In this document: one piece after another, positions 6,745 to 47,765 of the stretch
Layout: every line of letters begins with the position of its first letter
Position numbering within the stretch: position 1 is the first letter of the stretch
NCBI RefSeq assembly: GCF_988242995.1
Contig: NZ_OZ547043.1
Length of the DNA: 64,000 nt
Reading direction: 5' to 3' (one strand)
Made by a program: the position numbers and the translations under genes
Notes under the pieces: generated by a model
Seen by the model: the letters and a program-made list of their open reading frames with translations, nothing else
Database searches by the model: none
Told to the model about the DNA's origin: nothing

Positions 6745-8490
6745 TTAATAACCCGCCGTTAAATCATCCACCGAGCGCGGATCGGATGCGCCGTACAACT
6801 CGCCGTCCGGCCCAACCATAATGCTTTGTGTACTACCCATCGCCTCTTTCAGCGCCACTTTCTGACCTTTTGCTTCCAGCAGCTTGAGCGTATCCGGGCT
6901 AAACCCTTTTTCGACACGCAGCTCGTCCGGCAACCACTGATGGTGGAAACGCGGTGCATTGGTCGCTTCGGCGACATTCATACCATAATCGATGCTGTTC
7001 ACCACCATTTGCAGCACGGTAGTGATGATCCGGCTACCGCCTGGGCTACCAGTCACTAACCAGGTTTTACCGTCTTTCACCACAATGGTTGGGGACATCG
7101 ACGACAGCGGGCGTTTATTCGGCCCGACCGCGTTGGCGTCACCACCCACCAGCCCGTAAACGTTCGGTACGCCAGGTTTGGCGGAGAAATCATCCATCTG
7201 GTTATTAAGCAGAATACCGCTCTCGCCCGCGACAATGCCCGTCCCGAAGGTGGTGTTCAGCGTATAGGTCACCGCTACCGCGTTGCCGTCTTTATCCACC
7301 ACTGAGTAATGGGTAGTTTGATTACTCTCATAAGGCGCAAGCTTGCCGGGGCGAATTTCGCTGGATGGCTTCGCTTTATTGATATCGATTTGATCGGCAA
7401 TAGATTTGGCATAGGCTTTATTGGTCAGCGCCTGCCACGGAACTTTGACAAAATCCGGGTCGCCAAGATATTCCGAGCGGTCGGCGTAGGCATATTTCTC
7501 AGCTTCTGCCATGATTTGCATCGCGTCGGCGCTGCCAAAGCCGTATTTCTTCATATCGAAGTTTTCCAGAATATTGAGGATTTGTACGATATGGATCCCG
7601 CCGGAAGATGGCGGTGGCATGGAGTAAACCTGATACCCGCGATAATCGCCGCTAATCGGTGTACGTTCGACCGCTTTATACGCCGCTAAATCTTCTTTAG
7701 TGATCAAGCCACCGTTTTTCTGCATCTCCTGAGCGATCTGCTCCGCTATTGTGCCTTTGTAGAATTCGTCCGGGCCGTTTTCGGCAATCATCTCCAGGCT
7801 CTTTGCCAGGTTCGCCTGCACCAGCTTGTCGCCCTTTTTCAGCGGCGCGCCCTCTTTCCAGAAGATAGCCTTGCTGTTTTCGTGATTCGGCAACACTTCG
7901 CTACCGTAGGTTTTGAGATCGTCAGCCAGCGCGTCATTAACGATAAAACCATCGCGTGCCAGTTTAAACGCCGGCTGCACCACTTTATTTAACGGCATGG
8001 TGCCGTACTTCTCCAGCGCCAGCGAGAAACCTGCGACCGTACCTGGCGTACCGGAGGCCAGATGCGAAGTGAGTGATTTTTTGCTGTCCGGGTTGCCCTG
8101 GTCATCGAGGAACATATCGCGGGTCGCTTTGGCGGGTGCCATTTCGCGGAAATCGATAGCGGTGGTATTGCCATTTTTCGAGCGGATCAGCATAAAACCA
8201 CCACCGCCCAGATTCCCTGCCTGCGGATGCGTTACCGCCAGCGCGTAGCCCACCGCCACGGCGGCATCAACGGCATTCCCGCCCTCCTTTAGAATATCTA
8301 CCCCCACCTGAGTGGCAGTAGCATCTACAGACGCCACCATCCCCTGTTTCGCGCGTACCGGATGAAAGACATCTTCCTCCACGCCGTAAGAAACAGGAGA
8401 CGGCGCAGGTGGCGCGGCTACCGTACTAAAACAACTTCCTGTGAACAGAGCAGCAATGGCCACCCGGCGTAAAAACGTCGGTTTTATCAT
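6745..8490 (-). CDS. ggt: gamma-glutamyltranspeptidase
   Basis: Start refined to MIKPTFLRR (signal peptide) within ORF 6745-8517; 581 aa; conserved catalytic Thr region (NQTTHYSVVD) and GGG motifs. Confidence 0.95.
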   Translation of the reverse strand: MIKPTFLRRVAIAALFTGSCFSTVAAPPAPSPVSYGVEEDVFHPVRAKQGMVASVDATATQVGVDILKEGGNAVDAAVAVGYALAVTHPQAGNLGGGGFMLIRSKNGNTTAIDFREMAPAKATRDMFLDDQGNPDSKKSLTSHLASGTPGTVAGFSLALEKYGTMPLNKVVQPAFKLARDGFIVNDALADDLKTYGSEVLPNHENSKAIFWKEGAPLKKGDKLVQANLAKSLEMIAENGPDEFYKGTIAEQIAQEMQKNGGLITKEDLAAYKAVERTPISGDYRGYQVYSMPPPSSGGIHIVQILNILENFDMKKYGFGSADAMQIMAEAEKYAYADRSEYLGDPDFVKVPWQALTNKAYAKSIADQIDINKAKPSSEIRPGKLAPYESNQTTHYSVVDKDGNAVAVTYTLNTTFGTGIVAGESGILLNNQMDDFSAKPGVPNVYGLVGGDANAVGPNKRPLSSMSPTIVVKDGKTWLVTGSPGGSRIITTVLQMVVNSIDYGMNVAEATNAPRFHHQWLPDELRVEKGFSPDTLKLLEAKGQKVALKEAMGSTQSIMVGPDGELYGASDPRSVDDLTAGY

Positions 8491-9780: not shown

Positions 9781-10847
9781 ACTCGTTGTCCTGTTTCACC
9801 ATCAAAAAGATGCAGCTGATTTTCCGGCAGATGCAGCCACAGCGTGCTGCCTGCCGTCGGGCGCTCCTGATGCGCCAGTCGCACCACCAGCTTCTGTTCG
9901 CCCCAGCGTCCGTGCGCCAGGTTATCTGCGCCGAGGATCTCCAGCGTGTCCATCACCAGCGGTACGCCGCCTTCTGCCTGCGAGCTTAGCGCTATATGTT
10001 CCGGGCGAATGCCGAGAGTCATTTTACGCCCGGCATACTGACGGTAGCCACCGTTTAGCGGTAGCACGATACCGCCGTCCAGTTCAAAATGCGTGCCTTC
10101 ATTATTCACGCGGCCTGTCAGCAGATTCATCGCCGGACTGCCAATAAAACTCGCCACAAACAGGCTGGCGGGCTTTTCGTAGACTTCAACTGGCGTGCCA
10201 ATCTGTTCGGCAACGCCGCCGTTCATCACCATTACTCGCTGGGCGAGCGTCATCGCCTCAACCTGATCGTGAGTAACGTAGAGTGAAGTCGTTTTCAGGC
10301 GACGGTGCAGCTGTTGCAGTTCAAGACGCATCTGTACGCGCAACTTGGCATCGAGGTTAGAGAGCGGCTCATCAAACAGGAACACTGCCGGCTCACGCAC
10401 AATCGCACGCCCCATCGCCACACGCTGACGCTGACCGCCAGATAGCTCACGCGGGCGGCGCTTAAGCAGGCCGTCCAGCTCCAGAATGCGCGCCGCTTCT
10501 TTAACACGTTCGGCAATTTGTTGCTTGCCCATGCCGCGAATTTTCAGCCCCCACGCCATGTTCTCCTCTACGCTCATATGCGGATAGAGCGCGTAGTTCT
10601 GGAACACCATCGCAATCCCGCGATCTTTCGGCTCCATTTCGGTGACACGCTTGCGGTCGATCCAGATATCGCCCGTCGTTACCCGCTCCAGTCCGGCCAC
10701 CATTCGCAATAACGTCGATTTCCCGCAGCCAGACGGCCCGACCATCACGATAAATTCGCCATCCGCCACATCAAGGGTCAGCGGTTTAATGACCTGGGTT
10801 TTGCCATCCCAGCTTTTGGTTACTGCCTGTAATTTCAGTCCTGCCAT
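9777..10847 (-). CDS. ugpC: sn-glycerol-3-phosphate ABC transporter ATP-binding protein
   Basis: Start refined to MAGLKLQAV; Walker [13 protein letters not shown] signature LSGGQRQR; 356 aa. Confidence 0.95.
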
Positions 10848-10848
10848 C

Positions 10849-11694
10849 TTATTTCTCACTATCGACCAGGCCGCGCACAAAGGCACGCTGCATCACTAAA
10901 ACAATCACTACTGGTGGGATCAGGGTTAACAACATCGCCGCCATCACCGAGTTCCATTCCGTGGTGCCTTCGCCTGTGGCGATCATCCCTTTAATCCCTG
11001 CCACGGTGGTGCCGAGATCCACGTCGGTAATAATCAACAACGGCCACAAATACTGGTTCCAGCCGTAAATAAAGGTGATCACAAACAGCGCCGCCAGATT
11101 AGTTTTGGAGAGCGGAAAAACGATGTCGCAAAAGAAGCGCATTGGTGACGCACCGTCGATCCGCGCCGCTTCCACCAGCTCATCCGGCAGCGTCATAAAG
11201 AACTGGCGGAAAAGAAACGTGGCGGTCGCCGAGGCCATCAGCGGCAGCGTTAAACCGGCGTAGCTGTCGAGCATTTTCAGATTGGCGATCACTTCCACCG
11301 TCGGGAAAATACGCACTTCAACCGGCAACATCAGAGTGATAAAAATCATCCAGAAGAAGAGGTTACGTAGCGGAAAACGAAACCAGACAATGGCAAATGC
11401 CGAAAGCATCGAGACGGTAATTTTGCCGAGCGTAATGCTGAACGCCATCACAAAGCTGTTAAGCAACATCCGCCAGAAAGGCGCACTATTCGTGCCTACC
11501 CCGTTCACCCAGATGTTGTGGATGTTTTCCAGCAGATGTGTGCCGGGGATGAGCGTCATCGGCGCGGCGTAGACGGCCTGTTTATCCAGCGTCGCCGCGA
11601 CAAACGCCACGTACAGCGGGAAGAGGATCACCGCGATCCCGAGGATCAGCATGGTATGGCTGAATATCGTCAGCCACGGACGGTTCTCAATCAT
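10849..11694 (-). CDS. ugpE: sn-glycerol-3-phosphate ABC transporter permease
   Basis: 281 aa polytopic membrane protein, MalG-like; synteny in ugpBAECQ. Confidence 0.95.
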
Positions 11695-12578
11695 TGGTAA
11701 CGCACCTTGCTTTCAACATAGCGGAACTGCACCACCGTCAGCACGATGACGAGGAACATCAACACCACCGACTGCGCGGCAGACGAAGCCAGATCCAGTC
11801 CGGTAAAGCCTTCGCGGTAGATCTTATAAATCAGCGTCGTGGTAGCCTGAACCGGCCCGCCGGACGTAGCGGCGTCGATCACCGGGAAGGTGTCGAAGAA
11901 GGCGTACACCAGGTTCACCACCAGCAGGAAGAAACTCACCGGAGCGATAAGCGGCAGAGCAATCTTAAAGAAGCGGCGAATCGGGCCTGCACCGTCGATG
12001 GCTGCGGCTTCGATCAACGAACGGGGAATGGATTGCAGCGCGGCATAGAAGAACAGAAAGTTGTAGCTAATTTGCTTCCACACCGAGGCAAACACCACCA
12101 GAAACATCGCCTGACCGCTGTTTTGCGCGTGGTTCCAGTCGTAGCCGAACTCAGCGAGAAAATGGGTGATCAGCCCGCGACCAGGGTTAAACAGGAAGAT
12201 CCACAATACGGCGGCAACGGCGGGTGCCACGGCGTAAGGCAGCAGCATTAAGGTTTGATAGAAACGGCTGCCGCGCACGATGTACTCCACCAGCGCCGCG
12301 AAGAACAGCGATACCAGCAAACCGCTGACGGTGACAAAGGTGCTGAATTTTATCGTCGTCCAGAAGGAGTCGAGATAATAGCTGTCATGAAACAGCGTGA
12401 CGAAGTTATCCAGGCCGACAAACTGGCTGGAGAAACCAAATGGATCGACGCTTTGCAGCGAGTACCACAACGCTTCGCCCGCAGGCCAGATAAAAAAGAT
12501 AACGGTGATGATGAGCTGCGGCGCGACCAGCAAATAGGGCAGCCAGCGCGAGCGGAACACCGGACGGGATGATGACAT
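11691..12578 (-). CDS. ugpA: sn-glycerol-3-phosphate ABC transporter permease
   Basis: 295 aa polytopic membrane protein; 4-bp overlap with ugpE. Confidence 0.95.
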
Positions 12579-12589
12579 AGTTAAACTCT

Positions 12590-12740
12590 TCGTGTTGTGT
12601 TCCCCTCACCCCGGCCCTCTCCCCAGAGGGGCGAGGGAGAAAGGCGGTGCATACTTTCCCACCGAGCGAAGTTGCAAACCGACACGGCACCTGGATACCA
12701 CGCCGATCGGTCCCCTCTCCCTTTGGGAGAGGGTTAGGGT
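12590..12740. repeat. GC-rich palindromic intergenic repeat (boxC-like), two inverted copies
   Basis: cccctcaccccggccctctcccc...ggggcgaggg and its inverted partner gggagagggttagggtgaggg seen directly; a related copy occurs at about 30420-30490. Confidence 0.65.
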
Positions 12741-12753
12741 GAGGGTAAGAGAA

Positions 12754-14070
12754 TTAAGACTTCGTAGACTGCTCAAAGCGGCGCAGTAACTGATTCCCAC
12801 GCTCAACGGCGGTATCCAGCGCCTGCTGTGGCGTCTTCTTACCGGTCCACACGCTCTCCAGCTCTTCATCCACAATCACGCGGATCTGCGGCATGTTGCC
12901 CAGACGCAGCCCTTTGGTGAACGGCAACGGCGGCTTATTCAGCATCTGACGCGTCGCGGTATCCGCCCCTGGGTTTTTCTCATAAAAACCCTGCTCACGG
13001 GTCAGGTCATACGCCGCTTTGGTGATTGGCAGATAACCAGTTTTCTGATGCCACTCGGCAGCGTTTTCTGGCTTCGCGAGGAAGTCGAGGAACTTCGCCA
13101 CACCCGTATAAGTTTCTTTATCTTTACCCTGCATTACCCACAAGCTGGCTCCGCCGATAATGGCGTTTTGTGGCGCATCTTTCGCATCGGCGTCGTAAGG
13201 CATCATGCCTACGCCGTAGTTAAATTTGGCGTACTCGCGAATGTTGGCGAGAGAACCGGAAGAGGCGGTGGTCATCGCGCAATCACCGTTATAGAACTTC
13301 TCAGTGGATTCATCCTTACGCCCGACGTAGCTGAAATCGCCCTTCTTGTTCATCTCTTCGAGCATAGCGATGTGTTTCACCTGCTCCGGCTTGTTGAACT
13401 CCAGCACCGCGTCTGTGCCGTCAAAGCCGTTGTTTTTGCTGGCAAACGGCAGACCGTTCCAGGCGCTAAAGTTTTCCAGTTGGATCCAGCCCTGCCAGCC
13501 GCTGGCGTAGCCGCACTTCATGCCGGAGGCTTTCAGTTTTGCGGCATAGTCCGCCAGATCCTGCCAGGTTTTCGGCGGCTGTTCCGGGTCTAAACCGGCT
13601 TTCTTGAAGGCGTCTTTGTTGTAATAGAGAACGGGAGTCGAGCTGTTGAACGGCTGGGAGAGTAAGTGGCCGGTTTTGCTGTCGGAGTAGTAGCCTGAAA
13701 CCGTCGGCACAAACTGCGACTCATCGAACTGAATCCCCGCCTCTTTAAACACGTCATATACCGGTTTAATGGCTTTCGACGCCATCATGGTGGCGGTGCC
13801 AACTTCATAAACCTGCAAAATAGCAGGCGCGTTGCCGGTACGAAATGCGGCAATCCCCGCGCTTAAATTCTGTTCGTAGTTGCCTTTATAGGTCGGTACA
13901 ATTTTGTAATCCGGGTTTTCGGCGTTAAAACGTTGGGCCAGAGAATCCACCTCTTTACCCAGTTCCCCTTCCATAGAATGCCAGAACGGAATGGTCGTCA
14001 CTGCCTGTGCATTCCCCATTAACGCCAGTCCGAGCGCCAGTGCTGAAGCTGTATAATGTAACGGTTTCAT
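12754..14070 (-). CDS. ugpB: sn-glycerol-3-phosphate ABC transporter periplasmic binding protein
   Basis: 438 aa with signal peptide ([23 protein letters not shown]); first gene of ugp operon. Confidence 0.95.
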
Positions 14071-14250
14071 CGTTTATCTCTCTTGTTGTACCGAATGCGC
14101 GAATTCACGCGTTTTATGCTCGCGGGGTAACATGACATGCTCGAATTACAGAAAAATAACTTTTTTGTTACATTTGAAAGATAGTAAGGTGTCAGAAAGA
14201 TGACAAGGCGGTGACGGTACGTGTGAGGGAAAATGGGAGATGGGGCACGG
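14071..14250 (-). promoter_or_regulatory. ugpB promoter region (Pho-regulated in E. coli)
   Basis: AT-rich region upstream of ugpB containing CTGTAAT/TGTCAT-like pho-box half sites; assignment from established ugp regulation, individual sites not resolved. Confidence 0.4.
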
Positions 14251-14304
14251 ATAAGCGGGAAAAATAGAAGGTCTGAATCAAACTCTACAGATTGCTCATC
14301 GTTT

Positions 14305-14410
<106 letters not shown>

Positions 14411-14467
14411 TTACATTTGTCACCTGTCTCAAAGGAGTCTTTTGACTCCTTATCAATCAACGTGTTA

Positions 14468-15181
14468 TTACCCGCCTAAATACGCACTTCTCACCGCTTC
14501 ATTCGCCAGCAGCGTATCGCCGGTATCGGAGAGCACAACATGGCCGTTTTCCAGCACGTAGCCGCGATCCGCCAGCTTTAGCGCCTGGTTGGCGTTCTGC
14601 TCGACGAGGAAGATGGTCATCCCCTGCTCGCGCAGCTGCTCGATGGTGTCGAAAATCTGCTGGATGATAATCGGCGCAAGACCGAGCGATGGCTCATCAA
14701 GCAACAATAAACGCGGGTTGCTCATCAGCGCGCGACCAATCGCCAGCATCTGCTGCTCACCGCCGGACATGGTGCCCGCCCGCTGAACACGGCGTTCATG
14801 GAGACGCGGAAACAGTTCATACACCCACTTTATGCGTTCCTGGAACTGGTCACGTTCAGCAAAAAAACCGCCCATCGCCAGGTTCTCTTCCACCGTCATC
14901 CGCGAGAAAACACGACGCCCTTCCGGGACAATCGCCACCGCTTCGCGCATGATTTTCGCCGTCTGCCAGTCGGTAATGTCTTTATCATCAAACACAATTC
15001 GCCCGCTGGTGGCGCGTGGGTCGCCGCATAACGTGCCGAGCAAGGTGGTTTTCCCCGCGCCGTTCGCGCCAATGAGGGTGACAATCTCGCCCTGATTGAT
15101 ATGCAGGCTCACCTCATGCAGCGCCTGGATTTTGCCGTAGTGGGCGCAGACTTTGTCAAAGGACAACATGACTTTTTCCAT
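14468..15181 (-). CDS. livF: branched-chain amino acid ABC transporter ATP-binding protein
   Basis: Start refined to MEKVMLSFDKV; Walker A GANGAGKTT; 237 aa. Confidence 0.95.
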   Translation of the reverse strand: MEKVMLSFDKVCAHYGKIQALHEVSLHINQGEIVTLIGANGAGKTTLLGTLCGDPRATSGRIVFDDKDITDWQTAKIMREAVAIVPEGRRVFSRMTVEENLAMGGFFAERDQFQERIKWVYELFPRLHERRVQRAGTMSGGEQQMLAIGRALMSNPRLLLLDEPSLGLAPIIIQQIFDTIEQLREQGMTIFLVEQNANQALKLADRGYVLENGHVVLSDTGDTLLANEAVRSAYLGG

Positions 15182-15182
15182 C

Positions 15183-15950
15183 TTATGCCTCACCTAAATA
15201 GGCACGGATCACGTCCGGGTTATTACGGATCTGCTCCGGCGTACCGTTTGCCAGCGGCGTCCCCTGGTTGACCACGTAAATTCTGTCTGAAATCCCCATC
15301 ACCAGCTTCATATCGTGTTCAATCAACAAGATAGTGGTGTTGTGATGGTTACGCAGTTCGGCAATCAGCTCATCCAGCTCTTTCGTCTCTTTCGGGTTAA
15401 GACCTGCTGCCGGTTCGTCGAGCATTAAAATCTCCGGCTGCGTCACCATGCAGCGGGCAATCTCCAGACGACGCTGGTCACCATAGGCCAGGTTACTCGC
15501 CTGACGGTTGGCATGTTCCAGCAAACCAATGCGCTCAAGCCAGGTAGCGGCGCGGTCGAGCGCTTCGCTCTGGGCGCGACGGAAAGAAGGCGTTTTCAAC
15601 AGGCCGGAGAACAGCCCGGTTTTCAGTTGCTGATGCTGTGCCACCAGCAGGTTTTCAATTACCGTCATTTCACGGAACAGACGCACATGCTGGAAGGTAC
15701 GCACCACGCCCATGCGGGCAATTTGCTGCCCCGGTAAACCTTCCAGATGCTGATCGCGCAGTAAAATAGTGCCGCCGGTGGGTTTATAGAATCCAGTCAG
15801 GCAGTTGAAGACCGTGGTTTTTCCGGCACCGTTAGGTCCGATTAACGAGACGATCTCCTGCGGGTACAGTTCAAGATTGACGTTGTTCACCGCCAGCAGG
15901 CCGCCGAAGCGCATCATCAGGCCGTTAACGGATAATAATGGCTGACTCAT
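15183..15950 (-). CDS. livG: branched-chain amino acid ABC transporter ATP-binding protein
   Basis: 255 aa; Walker [10 protein letters not shown]. Confidence 0.95.
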
Positions 15951-17224
15951 GCCTGCTCTCCTTTCGCTGCGCCGTTTTTCAGCTTCAGTTGCGGGCGCGT
16001 CATGGGCAGCAAGCCCTGCGGACGCCAGATCATCATCAGCACCATCAAACCACCGAGCATTAACATGCTGTATTCGTTAAAGTCGCGCATCAATTCGCGC
16101 GACACCACCAGCAGAACTGCCGCCAGAATCACTGCAAATTGCGAACCCATACCGCCGAGCACCACTATTGCCAGCACAAAGGCTGATTCGGCAAAGGTGA
16201 AGGATTCCGGGCTGACAAAGCCCTGACGCGCAGCAAACAGCGTTCCGGCAAAACCGGCAAACGCGGCGCTGATGGTAAAGGCGGTCAGCTTGATACGACG
16301 CGGGCTTAAGCCCAGCGAACGGCAGGCAATTTCGTCTTCACGCAACGCTTCCCACGCACGACCCAACGGCATCCGCAGCAGGCGGTTAATGACAAACAGG
16401 CTTAACACCACCAGCAGCAACGCCACCAGGTAGAGGAAAATGACGCGATCGGAGGGATCGTATTTCAGGCCAAAGAAATTACTGAACGTGTCCCAGCCGC
16501 CTTCACGGGCGGTACGGCTGAACTCGAGTCCGAAGAGCGTCGGTTTCGGGATCTGACTGATTCCGTTCGGGCCGCCGGTGATTTCAGTGTTATTGAGCAG
16601 CAATATGCGCACAATTTCGCCGAAACCGAGGGTAACGATCGCCAGATAGTCGCCACGTAAACGCAACACCGGGAAGCCGAGCAGGAAGCCCGCCGCCGCT
16701 GCCATTAACCCGGCAATGGGCAGACAGGTCCAGAACCCCAGACCGTAATAGTGATTGAGCAGCGCAAAGGTGTAAGCGCCGATGGCGTAAAAGCCGCCGT
16801 ATCCCAGCACCAGCAGACCAGAAAGCCCTACCACCACGTTCAGCCCGAGACCAAGAATAATGTAGATCATGGTCAGAGTGGCGATATCCACCGTCCCGCG
16901 TGAGACCATAAACGGCCACGCCACCGCAAGCACCAGCAGCGCCACGAGAAACAGCTTTTGCTTCACCGTGGAGCCATCAATGGCGGGCAGAATAAACTTC
17001 GGTCCGGAAATGCTTTTCAACCCTTTCTGGAAAGCCGGTCGCAAAAGCTGGAAGAAAAAGACCACCGCCGTGCCGATAAACACCCACTGCCAACGGACAT
17101 CCGAAGCGCTATCGACCACCAGTTTGGTGCCATCCAGCTCCAGTTGCACGCCCATAAAGACGCCAGCGAGGACAAAGAACATCGCGGCAGAAAGCAGCGC
17201 CATTGCAATATGCATCGGTTTCAT
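15947..17224 (-). CDS. livM: branched-chain amino acid ABC transporter permease
   Basis: 425 aa polytopic membrane protein; 4-bp overlaps with livG and livH. Confidence 0.95.
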
Positions 17225-18147
17225 ACTTTCTCTACCTCCGGGCGACCCAGAATACCGGTCGGCATCACCAGCAACACCAGAATCAGCAGGGCGAATGAGA
17301 CCACATCTTTATATTCCGTACTCAGATAGGCAGAAGAGAGCGCCTCCGCAATCCCCAGAATCAGGCCGCCAATCATCGCTCCCGGAATGCTGCCAATCCC
17401 ACCGAGCACCGCAGCGGTAAAGGCTTTCATCCCGGCCATAAAGCCGATGTAGGGGTTAATGACGCCGTAGAACTGACCGAGCAGCACACCCGCCACCGCC
17501 GCCATCGCCGCGCCAATCACAAAGGTCAGCGCAATCACCCGGTCGGTGTTAATGCCAAGCAGACTCGCCATTTTCAGATCTTCCGCGCAGGCACGGCAGG
17601 CGCGCCCCATGCGGGAATAGCGAATGAAAATCGTCAGCGCCAGCATGGCAAGGAAGGTGACAATCCAGATCACCGCCTGCATGGTAGTAATAGAGGCAGA
17701 GAAGTTTTCGCTATGGCCCACCACCCACTGACCGTTAAACAGGCTCGGCAGCGCCACGTCGCGCGAACCTTCAGTCAGGCTAACGTAGTTTTGCAGGAAG
17801 ATGGACATACCGATTGCCGAGATGAGCGCAATCAGGCGCTTAGAGTTACGCACCGGGCGATAGGCTACCCGTTCGATACTCCAGCCGTAGGCGCTGGCAA
17901 TGACGATTGCGCCGACGAATCCCGCCGCCACCAGCAGCCAGCCGGTATCAATGCCCATCATCATCAGTGCGGCGATGATCATAAAGGAGACATAGCTACC
18001 AATCATATAAACCTCGCCGTGGGCGAAGTTGATCATGCCGATAATGCCGTAAACCATGGTGTAGCCGATGGCTATCAGCGCGTAGGTACTGCCCAGCGTG
18101 ACGCCGTTAAACATCTGCTGCAAGAAATACAAAAACTGCTCAGACAT
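17221..18147 (-). CDS. livH: branched-chain amino acid ABC transporter permease
   Basis: 308 aa polytopic membrane protein. Confidence 0.95.
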
Positions 18148-20152: not shown

Positions 20153-20252
<100 letters not shown>

Positions 20253-37945: not shown

Positions 37946-40749
<2,804 letters not shown>

Positions 40750-40947
40750 CACCTACCAACGCGCCGTTATTTCCTGACGGCGCAGTAAATTCCTGCCAAA
40801 TATCGACTCACGTCACATTTTTTTGATCACGATTTGGTCCCTCAAAATGTGAGACGCTTCGATCCTCTTTTTCTCCCGTTCACCTACTATACGCTTGAAG
40901 TTGTCCATGATTGTCCATAGACAACTGTAAATGTTCAGGTGCGCGCC

Positions 40948-41694
40948 ATGAAATCATTAAGTAAGTCGTCACAAATACCGCTCTATCAACAAGTGGTGGA
41001 GTGGATAAGAGAAAGTATTTATACCGGGGATTTGGTGGAAGACGATCGCATTCCTTCGGAATACCAGATTATGGATATGCTGGAAGTGAGTCGGGGAACC
41101 GTTAAAAAAGCAGTCGCCCAACTGGTAAAAGAAGGCGTGTTGATTCAGGTCCAGGGGAAGGGAACATTTGTCAAAAAAGAGAACGTGGCATATCCGTTAG
41201 GTGAAGGATTATTGTCATTCGCGGAATCGCTGGAAAGCCAGAAAATACACTTTACCACTGAAGTTATTACGTCACGGATTGAACCGGCTAATCGTTATGT
41301 GGCAGAGAAATTAAGAATAACGCCCGGTCAGGATATTCTTTACCTTGAGCGTTTACGTTCAATTGGTGATGAAAAAGCGATGCTGATAGAGAACCGTATC
41401 AATATTGAGCTATGCCCCGGCATCGTGGAAATCGATTTTAATCAACACAATTTATTTCCAACAATAGAAAGTTTGTCGCAAAGAAAAATTCGTTACTCGG
41501 AAAGTCGCTATGCCGCGCGATTAATTGGTAATGAACGCGGTCATTTTTTAGATATCAGTGAAGATGCACCCGTTTTGCATCTGGAGCAGTTAGTCTTTTT
41601 CTCCCGAGAGTTACCCGTTGAGTTTGGCAACGTCTGGTTAAAAGGAAATAAATATTATCTGGGTACCGTGCTGCAACGGCGGGAATTGAGTTAA
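40948..41694 (+). CDS. GntR/HutC-family transcriptional regulator (HTH + UTRA effector domain)
   Basis: ATG at 40948 with upstream AGGTG (track start 40939 is GTG); N-terminal GntR HTH (IPSEYQIMDMLEVSRGTVKKAVAQLVKEGVL...GKGTFV); not part of K-12 at this position. Confidence 0.8.
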   Translation: MKSLSKSSQIPLYQQVVEWIRESIYTGDLVEDDRIPSEYQIMDMLEVSRGTVKKAVAQLVKEGVLIQVQGKGTFVKKENVAYPLGEGLLSFAESLESQKIHFTTEVITSRIEPANRYVAEKLRITPGQDILYLERLRSIGDEKAMLIENRINIELCPGIVEIDFNQHNLFPTIESLSQRKIRYSESRYAARLIGNERGHFLDISEDAPVLHLEQLVFFSRELPVEFGNVWLKGNKYYLGTVLQRRELS

Positions 41695-41718
41695 ATACAC
41701 TTTTTTATGAGGAATAAA

Positions 41719-42192
41719 ATGCAAGGCATACAGTTTCAGGAAAATTATATTCAACGACTTCCGGCAGGGTTAAGCGTTGAACAGATCATCCGTCAGTTAG
41801 CGCAACCGTTGGTTGCTGCTGAGCTGGTGGTCCCTGATTTTGCCGATCACGTACTGAAACGTGAGGCGACGTACCCAACAGGGCTGCCTACCGAACCGCC
41901 GTGCGTCGCTATTCCGCACACGGACCATAAACATGTCAGGCACAATGCAATTGCCGTCGGCATCCTGCCGGAACCGGTAGAGTTTGCCGATATGGGCGGC
42001 GATCCTGACCCCGTACCTGTCAGGGTGATTTTTTTGCTCGCCTTAAGCGAAAGTAATAAACAATTAAATGCCCTGGGCTGGATTATGGAGATGATTCAGG
42101 ATACGCCCTTTATGCGCGCCCTGCTTACGATGGAAACAACAGAAATACACACAGTAATCTTAAACAAAATGAAAGAACGAGGTGAAATATGA
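41719..42192 (+). CDS. PTS EIIA component, galactitol (GAT) family
   Basis: GatA-like motifs (YPTGLPTEP ... VAIPHTDH); start taken at ATG after GAGGA (track start 41707). Confidence 0.75.
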   Translation: MQGIQFQENYIQRLPAGLSVEQIIRQLAQPLVAAELVVPDFADHVLKREATYPTGLPTEPPCVAIPHTDHKHVRHNAIAVGILPEPVEFADMGGDPDPVPVRVIFLLALSESNKQLNALGWIMEMIQDTPFMRALLTMETTEIHTVILNKMKERGEI

Positions 42193-42470
42193 GTCAAACC
42201 ATTTTATTTGTCTGCGCCACGGGTATTGCCACATCCACGGCGGTAACAGAAAAAGTCATGGAATATTGTAAAGAGCACGGTCTTAACGTCAATTATTCCC
42301 AAACCAACGTTGCCTCTTTACCTGGAAATACTGACGGCGTAGCACTGGTAGTCTCAACGACTAAAGTGCCTTATGAACTCGACGTCCCGGTGGTTAACGG
42401 CTTGCCGATTATTACCGGTATTGGCGAAGAGAAAGTACTGGCGCAAATTGTTTCGATCCTTAAAAAGTAA
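42189..42470 (+). CDS. PTS EIIB component, galactitol (GAT) family
   Basis: 93 aa; phosphocysteine motif near the N-terminus (ILFVCATGIATST) like GatB; 4-bp overlap with EIIA. Confidence 0.78.
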   Translation: MSQTILFVCATGIATSTAVTEKVMEYCKEHGLNVNYSQTNVASLPGNTDGVALVVSTTKVPYELDVPVVNGLPIITGIGEEKVLAQIVSILKK

Positions 42471-42546
42471 TTAATAATAATTAATTTCAACCCACTCCAT
42501 CAGGCGCTAACGCGAGGTGCGCTCTCGCCTGAAAAAGAGGTTTATT

Positions 42547-43905
42547 ATGAACGATATCGCGCATACCCTCTATAATATTGTGCAATATATATTGGGATTT
42601 GGTCCCACGGTAATGTTGCCGTTGGTGTTATTTATTCTTGCTCTCTTTTTTAAAGTAAAACCCGCTAAAGCCTTACGTTCGTCATTAACGGTCGGTATTG
42701 GTTTTGTCGGTATTTATGCCATTTTCGATATTCTTACCAGCAATGTCGGGCCAGCGGCCCAGGCGATGGTTGAACGCACCGGAATTAATTTACCGGTGGT
42801 GGATTTAGGCTGGCCGCCGCTTTCCGCTATTACATGGGGTTCGCCAATTGCCCCGTTTGTTATTCCCCTGACTATTCTGATTAACGTGGCGATGCTGGCG
42901 TTAAATAAAACCCGCACCGTTGACGTAGATATGTGGAACTACTGGCATTTTGCCCTTGCCGGTACGCTGGTTTATTACAGCACCGGCAGCCTGTTCTTTG
43001 GTTTGCTGGCAGCGGCGATTGCTGCGGTGGTAGTACTTAAACTCGCCGACTGGTCTGCGCCACTGGTACAAAAATACTTTGGCCTGGAAGGGATCTCTTT
43101 GCCGACGCTCTCTTCGGTGGTGTTCTTTCCGGTCGGTCTGTTGGTCGACAAAATCATCGACCATATCCCCGGCCTCAATCGTATTCATATCGATCCGGAA
43201 ACCGTACAGAAAAAGTTTGGCATATTCGGCGAACCGATGATGGTTGGTACTATTCTGGGCATTCTGCTCGGCGTAATTGCCGGATACGATTTCAAAAAAG
43301 TCTTGCTGCTTGGCATCAGCATTGGCGGTGTGATGTTCATCCTGCCACGCATGGTTCGCATTCTGATGGAAGGTTTATTACCGCTGTCTGAAGCCATTAA
43401 AAAGTATCTCAATGCCAAATACCCTGACCGTGACGATCTCTATATCGGCCTGGATATCGCCGTTGCCGTAGGTAACCCAGCGATTATCTCCACCGCCCTG
43501 CTGCTGACGCCAATCTCGGTCTTTATCGCGTTTGTCCTTCCGGGTAATGAAGTCCTGCCGCTTGGCGACCTTGCCAACCTGGCGGTAATGGCGTCGATGA
43601 TTGCTTTAGCCAGCCGTGGCAACATTTTCCGCACCGTTCTGGCGGCGATTCCGGTGATTATTGCCGATCTGTGGATTGCGACTAAAATCGCGCCGTTTAT
43701 TACCGGAATGGCGAAAGACGTTAATTTCAAATTTGCCGAAGGCTCCAGCGGCCAGGTCTCCAGTTTCCTTGATGGCGGTAACCCGTTCCGCTTCTGGCTG
43801 CTGGAAATCTTCAACGGCAATCTCATCGCCATTGGTCTGGTGCCGGTTATTGCCCTGGTACTGTATGGTATTTTCCGAATGACGCGGAGCACGGTTTATG
43901 CCTGA
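42547..43905 (+). CDS. PTS EIIC permease, galactitol (GAT) family
   Basis: About 452 aa polytopic membrane protein; ATG at 42547 preceded by AAGAGG (track start 42517 is GTG). Confidence 0.75.
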   Translation: MNDIAHTLYNIVQYILGFGPTVMLPLVLFILALFFKVKPAKALRSSLTVGIGFVGIYAIFDILTSNVGPAAQAMVERTGINLPVVDLGWPPLSAITWGSPIAPFVIPLTILINVAMLALNKTRTVDVDMWNYWHFALAGTLVYYSTGSLFFGLLAAAIAAVVVLKLADWSAPLVQKYFGLEGISLPTLSSVVFFPVGLLVDKIIDHIPGLNRIHIDPETVQKKFGIFGEPMMVGTILGILLGVIAGYDFKKVLLLGISIGGVMFILPRMVRILMEGLLPLSEAIKKYLNAKYPDRDDLYIGLDIAVAVGNPAIISTALLLTPISVFIAFVLPGNEVLPLGDLANLAVMASMIALASRGNIFRTVLAAIPVIIADLWIATKIAPFITGMAKDVNFKFAEGSSGQVSSFLDGGNPFRFWLLEIFNGNLIAIGLVPVIALVLYGIFRMTRSTVYA

Positions 43906-45406
43906 TAACAGCGCAGCTATCGTTATCGATATTGGCACCACCAATTGCAAAGTCACCTGCTTTTCCTGCCTGGACGCAACGACGTTGGGCGCGCATAAAT
44001 TCGTGACGGCAAAACAGATCTCCCCACAGGGCAATGTCGATTTCGATATCGACGCCCTCTGGCAGGAGGTCCGCCAGGCGATAGCGCAACTGAACGCCGC
44101 TTCGCCGCTGCCAGTCAGGCGGATAAGCATTGCCAGTTTTGGCGAGTCAGGCGTGTTCCTTGACGAGCATGGCGAGATCCTGACGCCAATGCTGGCATGG
44201 TATGACCGTCGCGGTGAAGAGTATCTGGCTACACTTAGCGAGGCAGACAGTGCGGCACTTTATGACATTTGCGGGTTACCGCTGCACAGCAATTACTCTG
44301 CCTTCAAAATGCGTTGGTTGCTGGAACATTACCCACTGCGTAATCGCCGCGGCCTGCGTTGGCTACATGCGCCGGAAGTACTGCTCTGGCGGCTGACCGG
44401 CGAACAGCGCACGGATATCACCTTAGCCAGCCGCACGCTGTGTCTGGACGTGCGCAAAGGCGCATGGTCAGTGAAAGCGGCGGCGTTGTTACACGTTCCC
44501 TGTTCAGCATTTGCGCCATTGGTGCAGCCAGGCGAACACGCCGGATGGGTCAGCGAGTCGCTCTGCAAAACGCTTGGGTTCTCGCAACCGGTCAGCGTGA
44601 CGCTGGCCGGACATGACCATATGGTGGGTGCGCGAGCGTTGCAGATGATGCCGGGCGATATCCTTAACTCGACGGGGACCACAGAAGGTATTCTGCAACT
44701 GGATACACAACCGACGCTGGATGAACAGGCCAAACGTGACAAGCTGGCAAACGGCTGTTATTCGCTTGCAAACCAGTTCACCCTGTTTGCGTCGCTGCCC
44801 GTGGGCGGTTTCGCTCTGGAGTGGCTGCGTAACACGTTCCGGCTAACCGATGAGGAGATCGCCGCATCACTTACTCGCGGACATGCGGATTACCTGGCGG
44901 GGAACTGGTCGCTCGATGACATTCCCCTCTTTATTCCACATCTTCGCGGTTCGGGTTCGCCCTATAAAAATCGCCATACTCGTGGATTATTTTATGGGCT
45001 TGGCGATACGTTAAATATCGACATGTTAATTGCCAGCGTCTCACTGGGATTAACCATGGAATTTGCCAACTGCTTCGCCTGTTTTAATGTGCCTGGCACC
45101 AGCGCGTTAAAAGTGATAGGTCCGGCAACCCAAAATCCCCTTTGGCTGCAATTAAAAGCGGATATTTTACAGCGTCCGGTTGAAGCAATTGCATTTAACG
45201 AGGCGGTTTCTGTCGGAGCATTATTAACTGCCGCACCGGATATTCCACCGCCGCAAGTTACCATAGCCCAACGTTTGTTACCGAATCGGGCGAGATACCA
45301 TCAATTACAGCGTTATCAGCACAAATGGAAAAGCTGGTATCAGTTGAAATTACAGCAAGAAGGCGTGATGCCATTACACCATCGGGAGGAGCACTATGTT
45401 GAGTAA
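43898..45406 (+). CDS. FGGY-family carbohydrate kinase
   Basis: 502 aa; N-terminal actin-fold phosphate-1 motif (AIVIDIGTTNCKV) and FGGY-type glycine-rich segments; 8-bp overlap with EIIC gene. Confidence 0.7.
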   Translation: MPDNSAAIVIDIGTTNCKVTCFSCLDATTLGAHKFVTAKQISPQGNVDFDIDALWQEVRQAIAQLNAASPLPVRRISIASFGESGVFLDEHGEILTPMLAWYDRRGEEYLATLSEADSAALYDICGLPLHSNYSAFKMRWLLEHYPLRNRRGLRWLHAPEVLLWRLTGEQRTDITLASRTLCLDVRKGAWSVKAAALLHVPCSAFAPLVQPGEHAGWVSESLCKTLGFSQPVSVTLAGHDHMVGARALQMMPGDILNSTGTTEGILQLDTQPTLDEQAKRDKLANGCYSLANQFTLFASLPVGGFALEWLRNTFRLTDEEIAASLTRGHADYLAGNWSLDDIPLFIPHLRGSGSPYKNRHTRGLFYGLGDTLNIDMLIASVSLGLTMEFANCFACFNVPGTSALKVIGPATQNPLWLQLKADILQRPVEAIAFNEAVSVGALLTAAPDIPPPQVTIAQRLLPNRARYHQLQRYQHKWKSWYQLKLQQEGVMPLHHREEHYVE

Positions 45407-45665
45407 AACCGTGGAGGTCAGAAACAGTACTGGCCTGCATGCACGTCCGGCGGCGTGTCTGGTGAAAGCCGCCAAAAAGTTTAGCTGTAAAGTGACGCTG
45501 CATTATGAGGGTAATGATATTAATGCCACCAGCATGATGAATATTATGCGCGCCGGAATAAAAGGCGGCAAAACGGTGGAAATACGCTGCGAAGGCGATG
45601 ATGAAAATGAGGCAATACAAACTCTCACTGCCTTATTTCGTGACCGCTTCGGTGAAGCTGAATAA
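45396..45665 (+). CDS. HPr-family phosphocarrier protein (operon-specific paralog)
   Basis: 89 aa; active-site His context GLHARPAA identical in pattern to HPr His15; strong SD GGGAGGAG. Confidence 0.8.
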   Translation: MLSKTVEVRNSTGLHARPAACLVKAAKKFSCKVTLHYEGNDINATSMMNIMRAGIKGGKTVEIRCEGDDENEAIQTLTALFRDRFGEAE

Positions 45666-45695
45666 TTAACTGATATTAAAAGATGAGGTTTTCAA

Positions 45696-46547
45696 ATGCC
45701 ATTAGTTAATGGACGGATACTGCTCGACCGCATTCAGGAAAAACGGGTATTAGCGGGCGCGTTTAATACCACCAATCTGGAGACGACGATTTCAATTTTA
45801 AACGCCATTGAGCGTTCAGGATTACCCAACTTCATTCAGATTGCGCCCACCAATGCACAACTCTCGGGATACGATTACATTTATGAAATCGTGAAACGTC
45901 ACGCCGATAAAATGGATGTTCCGGTCAGTCTTCATCTGGATCACGGGAAAACTCAGGAGGATGTTAAACAGGCGGTGCGCGCGGGCTTTACCTCGGTCAT
46001 GATTGACGGTGCCGCATTATCTTTTGAAGAGAATATCGCTTTCACCCAGGAAGCTGTCGATTTCTGTAAATCCTATGGCGTACCGGTTGAAGCGGAGCTG
46101 GGGGCGATTCTCGGCAAAGAAGATGATCACGTCAGCGAAGCCGATTGCAAAACGGAACCGGAAAAGGTGAAGACCTTTGTCGAGCGCACCGGTTGCGACA
46201 TGCTGGCAGTTTCTATTGGCAACGTTCATGGCCTGGACGATATACCGCGTATCGATATCCCCCTGCTGAAGCGCATTGCCGAAGTCTGCCCGGTGCCGCT
46301 GGTTATTCACGGCGGCTCCGGTATCGCCCCGGAAATATTACGCAGCTTTGTTAATTATCGCGTCGCTAAAGTAAATATCGCCAGCGATCTGCGCAAAGCG
46401 TTTATCACCGCCGTCGGCAAAGCGTATGTGAATAATCACAACGAGGCGAATCTGGCACGAGTGATGGCATCAGCAAAAAACGCCGTCGAGGAAGATGTGT
46501 ATAGCAAAATCCTGATGATGAATGAGGGGCATCGGTTGGTTAAGTAA
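45696..46547 (+). CDS. class II ketose-bisphosphate aldolase (GatY/KbaY/FbaA family)
   Basis: 283 aa; metal-binding His motifs (HLDHG, VIHGGSG) typical of class II tagatose/fructose-bisphosphate aldolases. Confidence 0.8.
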   Translation: MPLVNGRILLDRIQEKRVLAGAFNTTNLETTISILNAIERSGLPNFIQIAPTNAQLSGYDYIYEIVKRHADKMDVPVSLHLDHGKTQEDVKQAVRAGFTSVMIDGAALSFEENIAFTQEAVDFCKSYGVPVEAELGAILGKEDDHVSEADCKTEPEKVKTFVERTGCDMLAVSIGNVHGLDDIPRIDIPLLKRIAEVCPVPLVIHGGSGIAPEILRSFVNYRVAKVNIASDLRKAFITAVGKAYVNNHNEANLARVMASAKNAVEEDVYSKILMMNEGHRLVK

Positions 46548-46640
46548 ATCTTCGCCGGATGCGGCGTAAAACAACTACAATTCAATAAATTGTACCGATG
46601 CGTAGACCCTATAAGCTTACGCATCGGGCAACTGTATTTA
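46548..46640. repeat. REP-like palindromic elements at island/core junction
   Basis: gccggatgcggcgtaaa and cgatgcgtagaccctataagcttacgcatcgg palindromes between the aldolase gene and yhhJ. Confidence 0.7.
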
Positions 46641-47765
46641 CGCCATTGTCCCAATCGTCTTCCTGAATCGCAGCAGTGCGATGGTGAAAAACGCGCCGCC
46701 AATTGCCATCAGCGTCAGGAACTGCGGCCAGACGATTTCGAATCCGGCACCACGGTAGAGAATGGCTTGCGCGAGGCTGACAAAGTGTGTCGTCGGCATG
46801 GTCAGCATAATGTCCTGCACCGTCTGCGGCATACTTTCGCGCGGCGTGGATCCACCGGAAAGCATTTGCAGCGGCAGCAGCACCAGAATCACCAGCAGCC
46901 CCAGTTGCGGCATTGAACGCGCTATCGTCCCCATAAAAATGCCAATTGACGTGGTGGCAAACAGACTGAGCGCCACGCCCAGCATAAATAGCGGGATCGA
47001 GCCTTCAATCGGTACGCCCAGCACGCCTTTCACCATCAGTACCAGCGATAATCCCGACACCACCAGCACCACCAACCCCATCGACCAGACCTTCGCCATC
47101 ATGATCTCAAACGGCGTTATCGGCATCACCAGTAAGTGTTCCACCGTGCCGTGTTCGCGCTCGCGGATCAGCGCCGATCCGGTCAGCACAATCGCCAGCA
47201 TGGTAATGTTGTTGATGATCGCCATCACCCCGCCAAACCACGCGGGATCGAGGTTCGGGTTAAAGCGCATCCGGGTTTCCAGCGATACCAACGGTTCGCT
47301 ATTATCACGGTAGCGCGCGACAAAGCTGTTCACTTCACCGTTGATAATATTCTGGATATAACCGTTGCCAGTGAATGCCTGGCTCATGCGCGTGGCATCG
47401 ACGTTCACCTGAATATCCGGCTGGCGTCCGGCGAGGACATCACGCTGAAAATTAGGCGGAATATTTATCGCGAAGGTATAGCGTCCGGCGTCCAGTCCGG
47501 CATCCATCTCATCGGCGGTGATCATCTCCGGTGGCAAAAACCACGGGCGATAGAAGCTGTTAACGATCCGGTTCGACAACTGCGATTGATCCATATCGGC
47601 TATGGCGATCGGCGCGAGGTTCAACGATCCTGGCGTGACGGTCGCTGACGAATACACCGATACCGTAAACGAGAAAACAATCAACGTCAGCATCGCTTTA
47701 TCACCGAGCAGACTGCGCAACTCTTTGATACCCAGATTAAAAATATTGCGTAAATGGCGCATCAT
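46638..47765 (-). CDS. yhhJ: ABC-2 type transporter permease
   Basis: Start refined to [12 protein letters not shown] (4-bp overlap with rbbA); about 375 aa membrane protein. Confidence 0.9.

Follow-up and report, generated by a model that had tools for sequence, protein, structure and literature searches.

An intact seven-gene operon with a GAT-family phosphotransferase system, an FGGY kinase and a class II aldolase between nikR and yhhJ of Escherichia coli

Introduction

Which sugar route is encoded by the genes that some Escherichia coli strains carry between nikR and yhhJ, and how long have these genes been there? We have analyzed a stretch of 64,000 nucleotides from contig NZ_OZ547043.1 of assembly GCF_988242995.1 (the window), in which the nikR-yhhJ gap is filled by a cassette comprising a GntR/HutC regulator, enzymes IIA, IIB and IIC (EIIA, EIIB and EIIC) of a phosphotransferase system (PTS), an FGGY kinase, an HPr and a class II aldolase. 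An earlier note on this DNA described a six-gene, strain-variable metabolic island that occupies a hypervariable site, where K-12 carries an Rhs element. A K-12-type genome does have rhsB-yhhH-(pseudogene)-yhhI at the site. Our preferred reading, to which we assign a probability of about 0.5, is that the cassette is an intact seven-gene operon and an old resident of the nikR-yhhJ site, and that it serves a route from PTS uptake through an FGGY 1-kinase to a bisphosphate aldolase.

Results

Gene content and integrity of the cassette

The nikR-yhhJ gap spans exactly positions 40750-46637, as determined from the list of open reading frames (ORFs), Pfam, NCBIfam and a RefSeq comparison. The nikD-nikE-nikR nickel operon stops at 40749, and yhhJ-rbbA lies on the minus strand from 46638. 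Domains were called with Pfam profiles and NCBIfam equivalog models against their curated cut-offs, and gene starts are the RefSeq-consistent ones of a 99.5%-identical record, strain Ecol_316. Seven plus-strand genes fill the interval as one block, and all their domain matches are well over the Pfam cut-offs:

40348-40749, plus strand: nikR, left flank, outside the cassette (NikR equivalog, 235 bits; protein 100% identical to O157 NikR)
40948-41694, plus strand: GntR/HutC regulator with GntR and UTRA domains (PF00392, 58.9 bits; PF07702, 93.4 bits)
41719-42192, plus strand: EIIA, PTS_EIIA_2 (PF00359, 115.8 bits)
42189-42470, plus strand: EIIB, PTS_IIB (PF02302, 42.2 bits)
42547-43905, plus strand: EIIC, GAT-family permease (PF03611, 307 bits)
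43898-45406, plus strand: FGGY kinase (FGGY_N, 151.1 bits; FGGY_C, 87.4 bits)
45396-45665, plus strand: HPr (PF00381, 105 bits)
45696-46547, plus strand: class II aldolase (PF01116, 274.8 bits)
46638-47762, minus strand: yhhJ, ABC-2 permease, right flank, outside the cassette (99.2% identical to O157 YhhJ)

The count of six in the earlier note thus has to be raised to seven, while the seven families that it listed are all confirmed by the domain matches. Its overlaps of 4-11 bp also agree with our measurements, which are 4 bp for IIA/IIB, 8 bp for IIC/kinase and 11 bp for kinase/HPr; the remaining gaps between the cassette genes are 24, 76 and 30 bp. Neither an alcohol dehydrogenase nor a GatZ domain was found in the seven genes, and the interval holds no further notable ORF.

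None of the seven ORFs contains an internal stop, and all are full length, so that the inactivating lesions the earlier note allowed for are absent. Their lengths match the RefSeq models, except that the aldolase has 286 amino acids in O157 and Citrobacter and 283 in the window, where the C-terminal junction differs. Between the window and O157, the ratio of nonsynonymous to synonymous substitution rates (dN/dS) is 0.008-0.125 across all seven genes. The cassette is an intact, self-contained catabolic operon.

It is already known as an object, not as a function. RefSeq annotates all seven genes under generic names. In strain EDL933, Z4875, Z4876, Z4877 and Z4879 are IIA, IIB, IIC and HPr (PMC6199705), and by their position Z4874, Z4878 and Z4880 would be the regulator, kinase and aldolase. 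In the contents of the bovine rumen, small intestine and rectum, the expression of Z4875-77 and Z4879 is higher than in M9-glucose by a log2 fold change of 2-4 (PMC6199705). Z4874, whose identity as the regulator we infer from the order of the tags, is among the strongly RpoS-dependent genes (PMC2907692). The orthologous Salmonella cluster, STM3779-3785, was described as "a complete PTS with unknown specificity" (PMC3604774), and a 2024 paper keeps it under "unknown sugars" (PMC11000858).

One might suppose that a cluster with no known substrate is cryptic and decaying, without a present function, the more so as the Salmonella orthologue is reported to be repressed by H-NS (cited in PMC3604774). 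We consider this highly improbable. The dN/dS values indicate strong purifying selection on seven intact ORFs and, together with the induction of the EDL933 genes in gut contents, argue against a decaying cluster; the module is moreover kept across phyla (see below).

Transporter, HPr and aldolase

EIIC covers 393 of the 394 positions of PF03611 (cut-off 24.2 bits) and has the fold of the GAT family (TC 4.A.5); it is accompanied by separate soluble EIIA and EIIB proteins. EIIC is 89% identical to its Salmonella orthologue and 96% identical to that of Citrobacter. In the translations, a putative phosphorylated His lies in the EIIA motif VAIPHT, and a putative phosphorylated Cys in the N-terminal EIIB motif FVCATGIATS. 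HPr exceeds the TIGR01003 cut-off (105.9 versus 47.9 bits) and misses that of the general HPr (PtsH) equivalog (56.5 versus 153 bits); its translation contains His15, within GLHARPA, and Ser46. Against Citrobacter, dN is 0.12-0.17 for the fast-changing EIIA, kinase and HPr and 0.02-0.04 for the slow-changing EIIC, EIIB, regulator and aldolase, a several-fold difference.

Could the cassette be a second system for galactitol (Gat)? The RefSeq name "PTS galactitol transporter subunit IIC" and the EDL933 transcriptome paper both assume so. EIIC falls within PF03611 and TIGR00827, the aldolase scores about 240 bits on GatY-type models, and Z4875-77 carry the label "galactitol transporter" (PMC6199705). 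This label, however, is an annotation transfer, not an experiment. All three PTS components stay under their galactitol-specific cut-offs, with 475.6 versus 542.2 bits for EIIC (TIGR00827), 57 versus 139 bits for EIIA (GatA equivalog) and 60.2 versus 95 bits for EIIB (GatB equivalog). The cassette also has neither gatD nor gatZ, and in the absence of gatD it could not by itself oxidize galactitol 1-phosphate. A galactitol system is therefore improbable. The label "GAT-family" given in the earlier note holds at the level of the family (PF03611) and does not extend to the galactitol-specific models.

The aldolase also belongs to a separate group. It matches the "class II aldolase" equivalog NF005943 (PRK07998) with 556.7 bits over a cut-off of 364, and it remains under the cut-offs of the GatY subfamily (239.8 versus 383 bits), KbaY (180 versus 542) and class II fructose-bisphosphate aldolase TIGR01859 (237.8 versus 343). 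NF005943 is also the best model for the aldolases of two other locus types described below, namely type B (512.6 bits) and the actinobacterial loci (356.9 bits, just under the cut-off). The three zinc-ligand histidines in HLDH, VHG and IHGGS align with those of AgaY (1gvf) and of the fructose-bisphosphate aldolase of Thermus aquaticus. In the alignment the Arg of the motif "DLR" is common to fructose 1,6-bisphosphate (FBP) aldolases, in which we take it to bind the distal phosphate. Among solved structures the aldolase is equidistant from fructose-bisphosphate aldolase, AgaY, KbaY and YdjI (147.7 bits for YdjI). Since the kinase has no close solved relative either, the specificity of the route cannot be read from solved structures.

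The FGGY kinase and its relatives across species

The kinase has both FGGY_N and FGGY_C domains, and its D240 is invariant in an alignment with E. coli XylB, GlpK, FucK and RhaB. It belongs to an uncharacterized FGGY subfamily, as judged by sequence: none of the models for named specificities (XylB, GlpK, FucK, RhaB, GntK, LsrK and AraB) reaches its equivalog cut-off, the best being XylB with 145.4 versus 380.25 bits. The alignment separates two classes of motifs, given here for the cassette kinase and for two actinobacterial kinases, K1 and K2, that are introduced below:

Cassette kinase and K1: catalytic-Asp motif AGHDHMVGA, second motif LNSTGTTEG
FucK: catalytic-Asp motif AGHDTQFAL, second motif LSSGTWEI
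RhaB: catalytic-Asp motif ASHDTASAV, second motif LSSGTWSL
K2: catalytic-Asp motif GSGDNAAAA, second motif LSLGTSGV
XylB: catalytic-Asp motif GGGDNAAGA, second motif LSLGTSGV

The cassette kinase and K1 resemble FucK and RhaB, with which they share the HD motif, whereas K2 resembles XylB. The site of phosphorylation is C-1 of 2-ketoses for FucK and RhaB and the terminal hydroxyl for XylB.

We then asked in which company this kinase is found. One genome per species was scanned with the kinase alignment as a query, which gave 80 loci that were mapped by tblastn. The kinase and an NF005943-type aldolase are co-located in 77 of them; of the other three, one gave no aldolase match and two are very short contigs. 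The pair occurs in Enterobacterales, Orbales (Gilliamella), Firmicutes, Negativicutes and Actinobacteria. Wherever the module is linked to a PTS, it contains just one FGGY kinase. Type A loci, which lack a dehydrogenase, occur in E. coli, Salmonella, other Enterobacterales, the Enterococcus avium group, Selenomonas, Pectinatus and others. Type B loci have in addition one or two zinc alcohol dehydrogenases and are found in Pantoea, Erwinia, Raoultella, Serratia, Gilliamella, Bacillus and Staphylococcus; one of their dehydrogenases is GatD-like, with 238 bits on the galactitol-1-phosphate 5-dehydrogenase model. Type C loci, from 18 actinobacterial species, have no PTS, and all of them contain aldolase-K1-K2, sometimes with a third FGGY gene. 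Of the two kinases, K1 is orthologous to that of the cassette, and K2 is XylB-like, with 309-331 bits on TIGR01312 (cut-off 380) and a GDNAA motif. An ABC-type solute-binding protein is matched by tblastn nearby in 10 of the 18 type C loci and a GntR regulator, weakly, in 16. Pfam annotation of two of these loci identified the binding protein in Arthrobacter and Catenuloplanes and a GntR/UTRA regulator in Catenuloplanes. The third FGGY-like gene is more divergent and follows aldolase-K1-K2 in nine loci, mostly from Microbacteriaceae (Microbacterium, Herbiconiux, Okibacterium, Frigoribacterium and Schumannella), with one Demequina metagenome-assembled genome.

As in the cassette, the type B clusters have a dedicated HPr and a GAT PTS adjacent to the kinase, and their aldolase (81-91% identical in Enterobacterales) and regulator (66-72%) are of the same subfamily and family, respectively. 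They differ from it in the zinc alcohol dehydrogenases, often in a SurE-type phosphatase, and in an EIIC and a kinase that are only 55-59% and 35-39% identical to those of the cassette. Their substrate is presumably a polyol. In 12 paralogous clusters of Pantoea, Erwinia, Raoultella, Serratia and Enterobacter, the aldolase is far more conserved than its pathway partners. In Enterococcus raffinosus, E. malodoratus and E. avium (L038, L039 and L041, at about 9930-17370), a second aldolase, a PRD-type regulator and a zinc alcohol dehydrogenase lie directly downstream of the type A module, followed in E. raffinosus and E. malodoratus by a partial FGGY kinase match at the end of the stretch examined. 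These downstream genes look like a second related cluster in tandem.

The presence of a single kinase in PTS-linked loci and of an additional XylB-like K2 in loci without a PTS suggests that the PTS substitutes for a transporter plus a terminal-hydroxyl kinase. Taken together with the FucK/RhaB-like motifs of the cassette kinase and K1, this points to an order in which the distal phosphate is added first, then the phosphate at C-1, and cleavage follows. We infer every step of the route, which could run as follows. Phosphoryl groups would pass from enzyme I to the dedicated HPr, to EIIA and to EIIB. EIIC would import a sugar, most likely a ketose such as a ketohexose, and the phosphate would be placed on its terminal hydroxyl, at the end remote from the keto group. 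The FGGY kinase would then phosphorylate C-1 to give a ketose 1,omega-bisphosphate, and the zinc aldolase would cleave this into dihydroxyacetone phosphate (DHAP) and an aldose phosphate (glyceraldehyde 3-phosphate if the substrate is a hexulose), after which no further dedicated enzyme would be needed. In the actinobacterial counterpart, an ABC transporter and K2 would take over uptake and the distal phosphate, and K1 would phosphorylate C-1. In type B, polyol-phosphate dehydrogenases would precede the same steps, as GatD does in the gat pathway. In PTS-linked systems, such dehydrogenases oxidize polyol phosphates to ketoses that carry the phosphate at the distal end, so that a 1-kinase would be needed before a DHAP-forming aldolase. 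With no dehydrogenase in the cassette, type A of E. coli is expected to take a ketose directly.

The same genes could also be arranged in a monophosphate route like that of fructose in liver, in which the PTS would yield a ketose 1-phosphate, the aldolase would release DHAP and a free aldose (e.g., glyceraldehyde), and the kinase would phosphorylate the aldose. This route likewise has exactly two phosphorylations, and the replacement of one kinase by the PTS fits it equally well. A sequence search of solved structures gave glycerol kinases as the best relatives of the cassette kinase (at most 88 bits), and YdjI, a class II aldolase relative, acts on a 1-monophosphate. Four observations speak for the bisphosphate instead. 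K2, the enzyme that the PTS replaces, is of the XylB-like terminal-hydroxyl type and not of the 1-kinase type; the cassette kinase has the HD and GT-x-E motifs of FucK and RhaB, not the GDQQ of GlpK; the GatD-like enzymes of the variant loci would put the phosphate distal to the keto group; and the aldolase keeps the DLR Arg, the presumed distal-phosphate binder of FBP aldolases. We therefore regard the monophosphate route as unlikely. As for the bisphosphate route, the specific proposal that the cassette kinase represents the first member of an FGGY subfamily whose target is C-1 of a ketose omega-phosphate is tentative, and we would put it somewhat below even odds; to our knowledge this reaction has not been described for the FGGY family.

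Upstream region and regulation

An alignment of E. coli, O157, Citrobacter, Salmonella and Pantoea was used for phylogenetic footprinting of the region upstream of the regulator gene, and the promoter model is based on this footprinting rather than on a generic scan. The elements of the upstream region are the following:

40761-40783, plus strand: short G+C hairpin GCGCCGT-N9-ACGGCGC just past the nikR stop codon, a possible nikR terminator (read from the sequence; also in the O157 allele)
40848-40863, plus strand: CRP-like site TGTGA-N6-TCGAT (read from the sequence; centered about 41.5 nucleotides before the predicted transcription start)
40885-40890, plus strand: candidate -10 hexamer TACTAT, TATTAT in Citrobacter (read from the sequence and the upstream alignment)
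40900-40925, plus strand: candidate GntR/HutC operator GTTGTCCATGATTGTCCATAGACAAC, which holds the palindrome TTGTC-N4-GACAA at 40911-40924 (from footprinting and uniqueness)

The AAA-TGTGA block is unchanged in E. coli, Citrobacter, Salmonella and Pantoea. The candidate -10 hexamer has no good -35 element, which fits an activator-dependent promoter, and the position of the CRP-like site relative to the predicted start would give the geometry of a class II CRP promoter. The most conserved upstream block is GTTGT(C/A)CAT(GA/AG)TTGTC(C/T)ATAGACAAC. The candidate operator palindrome within it has its sole exact match in the window here, and it lies about 23 nucleotides 5′ of the regulator start codon, which is placed as in RefSeq WP_001329803, in E. 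coli, O157, Citrobacter, Salmonella and Pantoea (four genera). A GT-N-AC motif is typical of GntR-family operators, and TTGTC-N4-GACAA fits this type. The regulator itself has the N-terminal GntR winged helix and the C-terminal UTRA effector domain of the HutC subfamily, and it stays under every NCBIfam equivalog cut-off.

One operator-like site, three overlaps and short gaps between the genes suggest that the cassette is a single autoregulated transcript of seven genes. A single promoter 5′ of the regulator gene, probably CRP-dependent, would drive them all. The conserved TTGTCCAT-repeat/palindrome overlaps the predicted transcription start, and by binding there the regulator would probably repress the promoter; a phosphorylated pathway intermediate bound by the UTRA domain would lift the repression.

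Population alleles and history of the nikR-yhhJ site

To what extent is the cassette variable among strains? Complete E. coli genomes (5426) were searched by megablast with the cassette and with junction-specific queries. The cassette is present in 1635 of them (30%), including O157:H7 and sequence type 131 (ST131), which bears out the strain variability asserted in the earlier note; the cassette is thus neither a universally conserved nor a characterized operon. All copies are chromosomal, and no plasmid-borne copy was found among 20,395 records. The site has five alleles, which sum to 5411 of the 5426 genomes (99.7%):

Cassette abutting yhhJ via a repetitive extragenic palindrome (REP), the window type (100% match in enteroaggregative E. 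coli (EAEC) 042): 1055 genomes
Cassette plus the hicAB toxin-antitoxin pair, the O157:H7 type: 582 genomes
hicAB only: about 1490 genomes (2072 with hicAB in total minus 582)
rhsB-yhhH-yhhI, the K-12 type: 2118 genomes
Empty site, with nikR and yhhJ 8 bp apart: 166 genomes

In the nikR-yhhJ gap the hicA/hicB pair lies at 7808-8439 of one locus (L002, O157:H7, downstream of the cassette) and at 1370-2001 of another (L004). The O157-type hicAB allele alters the last residues of the aldolase, which accounts for 286 instead of 283 amino acids.

On the yhhJ side the cassette ends at two elements related to REPs:

46554-46569, plus strand: truncated REP, 5′ half only, GCCGGATGCGGCGTAA (exact 16-mer match to two complete REPs of the window)
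46595-46627, no strand assigned: REP-like hairpin, stem of 11 bp, in the spacer where the aldolase gene and yhhJ converge (minimum free energy -28.7 kcal/mol, z = -3.93)

The 16-mer GCCGGATGCGGCGTAA has three exact copies in the window, where about one match would be expected by chance even at 3 mismatches. The other two copies, at 14308 and 20236, lie in complete REPs (GCCGGATGCGGCGTAAACGCCTTATCCGGCCTAC), which makes the copy at 46554-46569 a truncated REP, with 16 nucleotides of an imperfect palindrome that in complete form measures about 35. These complete REPs, at 14308-14341 and 20217-20251 in the ugp/liv region, are each followed by a similar CAAGATC...ATTGCAA tail. The hairpin is degenerate in comparison with a REP, and none of 200 shuffled sequences folds as well; located in the 90-bp spacer between the aldolase gene and yhhJ, it is probably a bidirectional terminator or an mRNA stabilizer. 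The REP palindromes that the earlier note placed at this boundary are therefore largely right, REP sequence and a REP-like hairpin being present, with the corrections that the REP is a 5′ half and the hairpin is degenerate.

The K-12-type rhsB allele retains part of this boundary. About 85 bp beside its yhhJ align with the window from 46553 on (46553-46637 versus 19054-19140 of L005), and the hairpin is about 97% identical. At this junction the rhsB allele holds the complementary 3′ half of a REP and the cassette allele the 5′ half. The presence of a different half of one REP at the breakpoint in each allele suggests that the event that replaced one by the other broke inside a REP.

The same cassette, in the same order, is also found between nikR and yhhJ in Citrobacter amalonaticus, Escherichia whittamii and Escherichia sp. 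MOD1-EC7003. Relative to C. amalonaticus, the cassette proteins are 75-96% identical and the flank proteins 87-95%; at the nucleotide level the cassette is 78.3% and its flanks are 82.5% identical to their Citrobacter counterparts. The synonymous divergence (dS) between the window and O157 is 0.06-0.20 for the cassette genes, 0.17 for nikR and 0.14 for yhhJ. No integrase, transposase or insertion sequence (IS), or tRNA gene was found in or beside the interval in the ORF listing and the RefSeq comparison, and a search of the interval for direct and inverted repeats found no bounding direct repeats. The features that define a mobile genomic island (integrase or transposase, attachment site, direct repeats) are thus absent. 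The G+C content is 49.1% in the cassette (42-54% per gene, 42% in the regulator), 51.1% in the window and 55-60% in the nik genes.

An island occupying a hypervariable site, as in the earlier note, would have been acquired horizontally and have settled at a recombination hot spot of the E. coli chromosome. Its patchy presence in 30% of genomes and its lower, uneven G+C content would agree with such a history. The nikR-yhhJ site, listed as an Rhs locus (PMC2935791), accepts Rhs and hicAB elements; and the orthologous cluster of Salmonella is found elsewhere, by uhp, and is described as an AT-rich, H-NS-repressed island gained by subspecies I (PMC3604774). Against this, the site and the gene order are identical in C. 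amalonaticus, E. whittamii and Escherichia sp. MOD1, the divergence of the cassette tracks that of its flanks, mobility genes, tRNA, direct repeats and plasmid copies are all lacking, and the rhsB allele keeps a remnant of the cassette-side REP and hairpin. Such an acquisition is therefore unlikely. The shared site in other species, the flank-like divergence, the remnant and the absence of mobility features together argue that the cassette is the older occupant. It looks like a long-term resident, and about 70% of complete E. coli genomes would have lost it or received Rhs or hicAB in its place. Of the description as an island at a hypervariable site, the polymorphism stands, with five alleles, and the insertion history is probably backwards. 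Horizontal movement of the cassette between genera has still occurred, as seen from the different site in Salmonella and the uneven G+C content.

Elsewhere in the genome of strain Ecol_316, the closest complete genome, IS1397 is inserted between panM and livJ (18442-19790 of L096).

Discussion

The reading of the cassette as an old resident operon with a PTS, a 1-kinase and a bisphosphate aldolase has to be weighed against several adverse points. Full-text searches of the literature found no biochemical or genetic test of the cassette and no substrate name. Judged by overall score, FucK is no nearer to the cassette kinase than XylB or GlpK (145, 127 and 119 bits, the highest value being that of XylB); the kinase is equally far from all named FGGY enzymes, and its resemblance to FucK and RhaB resides in two short motifs. 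We know of no FGGY kinase with a demonstrated activity on a sugar phosphate. All 18 loci with the two-kinase pattern belong to one phylum and are therefore not independent; K2 may be a mere xylulokinase of a parallel pentitol branch; and, as stated above, a monophosphate aldolase substrate combined with a triose kinase fits the pattern equally. In the regulatory part, a generic promoter and terminator scan gave counts at background and no call in the region upstream of the regulator, and the promoter, the CRP site and the operator are candidate elements from reading the sequence.

Comparison with known systems helps to place the cassette. Like the gat pathway (gatYZABCD), it has a GAT-family PTS with separate EIIA, EIIB and EIIC and ends in a class II ketose-bisphosphate aldolase, and its proposed logic is the same: a phosphate from the PTS, a second phosphate, and aldol cleavage. 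In the gat pathway PfkA makes the second phosphorylation and the regulator, GatR, is of the DeoR type. Unlike gat, the cassette lacks GatD and GatZ, is controlled by a putative GntR/HutC repressor and includes an FGGY kinase and an HPr of its own. With the L-fucose and L-rhamnose pathways it shares an FGGY kinase with HD and GT-x-E/W motifs that is followed by a metal-dependent, DHAP-yielding aldolase, although FucK and RhaB are only 19-23% identical to the cassette kinase overall. These two kinases act on free deoxy-ketoses, the aldolases FucA and RhaD are of another fold family (PF00596), and uptake is by proton symport with no PTS. The D-altritol/galactitol pathway of Agrobacterium, in which the tagatose kinase is reportedly a PfkB protein and the tagatose-6-phosphate 4-epimerase GatZ-like, was rejected as a model, as the PfkB (PF00294) and GatZ-like (PF08013) families are absent from the cassette. 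The nearest system is STM3779-STM3785 of Salmonella enterica, the "island for unknown carbohydrate utilisation", which has the same seven families and differs in gene order by an exchange of aldolase and HPr. Identities to the cassette are 89% for EIIC, 89% for the aldolase, 81% for the regulator, 63% for the kinase and 44% for HPr; the same operator palindrome lies 5′ of the regulator gene, and the chromosomal site is different. The cassette is thus a further member of the known sugar operons with a PTS, a kinase and an aldolase, with an unusual FGGY kinase and a private HPr.

Beyond the question of its substrate, the cassette is an ordinary, already annotated accessory operon. Along with other accessory systems for carbohydrates, it distinguishes O157:H7, ST131, EAEC 042 and all tested Salmonella subspecies I from K-12. 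The interchange of the PTS with a XylB-like kinase, the FucK/RhaB-like motifs and the dehydrogenase-bearing sister clusters narrow the biochemical search to a few ketose phosphates. If the kinase does phosphorylate C-1 of a ketose omega-phosphate, the cassette and its relatives in Firmicutes and Actinobacteria would define a widespread, unrecognized ketose 1,omega-bisphosphate route, serving a natural sugar that has so far been assigned to neither E. coli nor Salmonella, for which a rare ketohexose or a heptulose are candidates. The name of the substrate would correct the "galactitol" annotation on thousands of genomes and would add a niche-defining nutrient to models of gut colonization.

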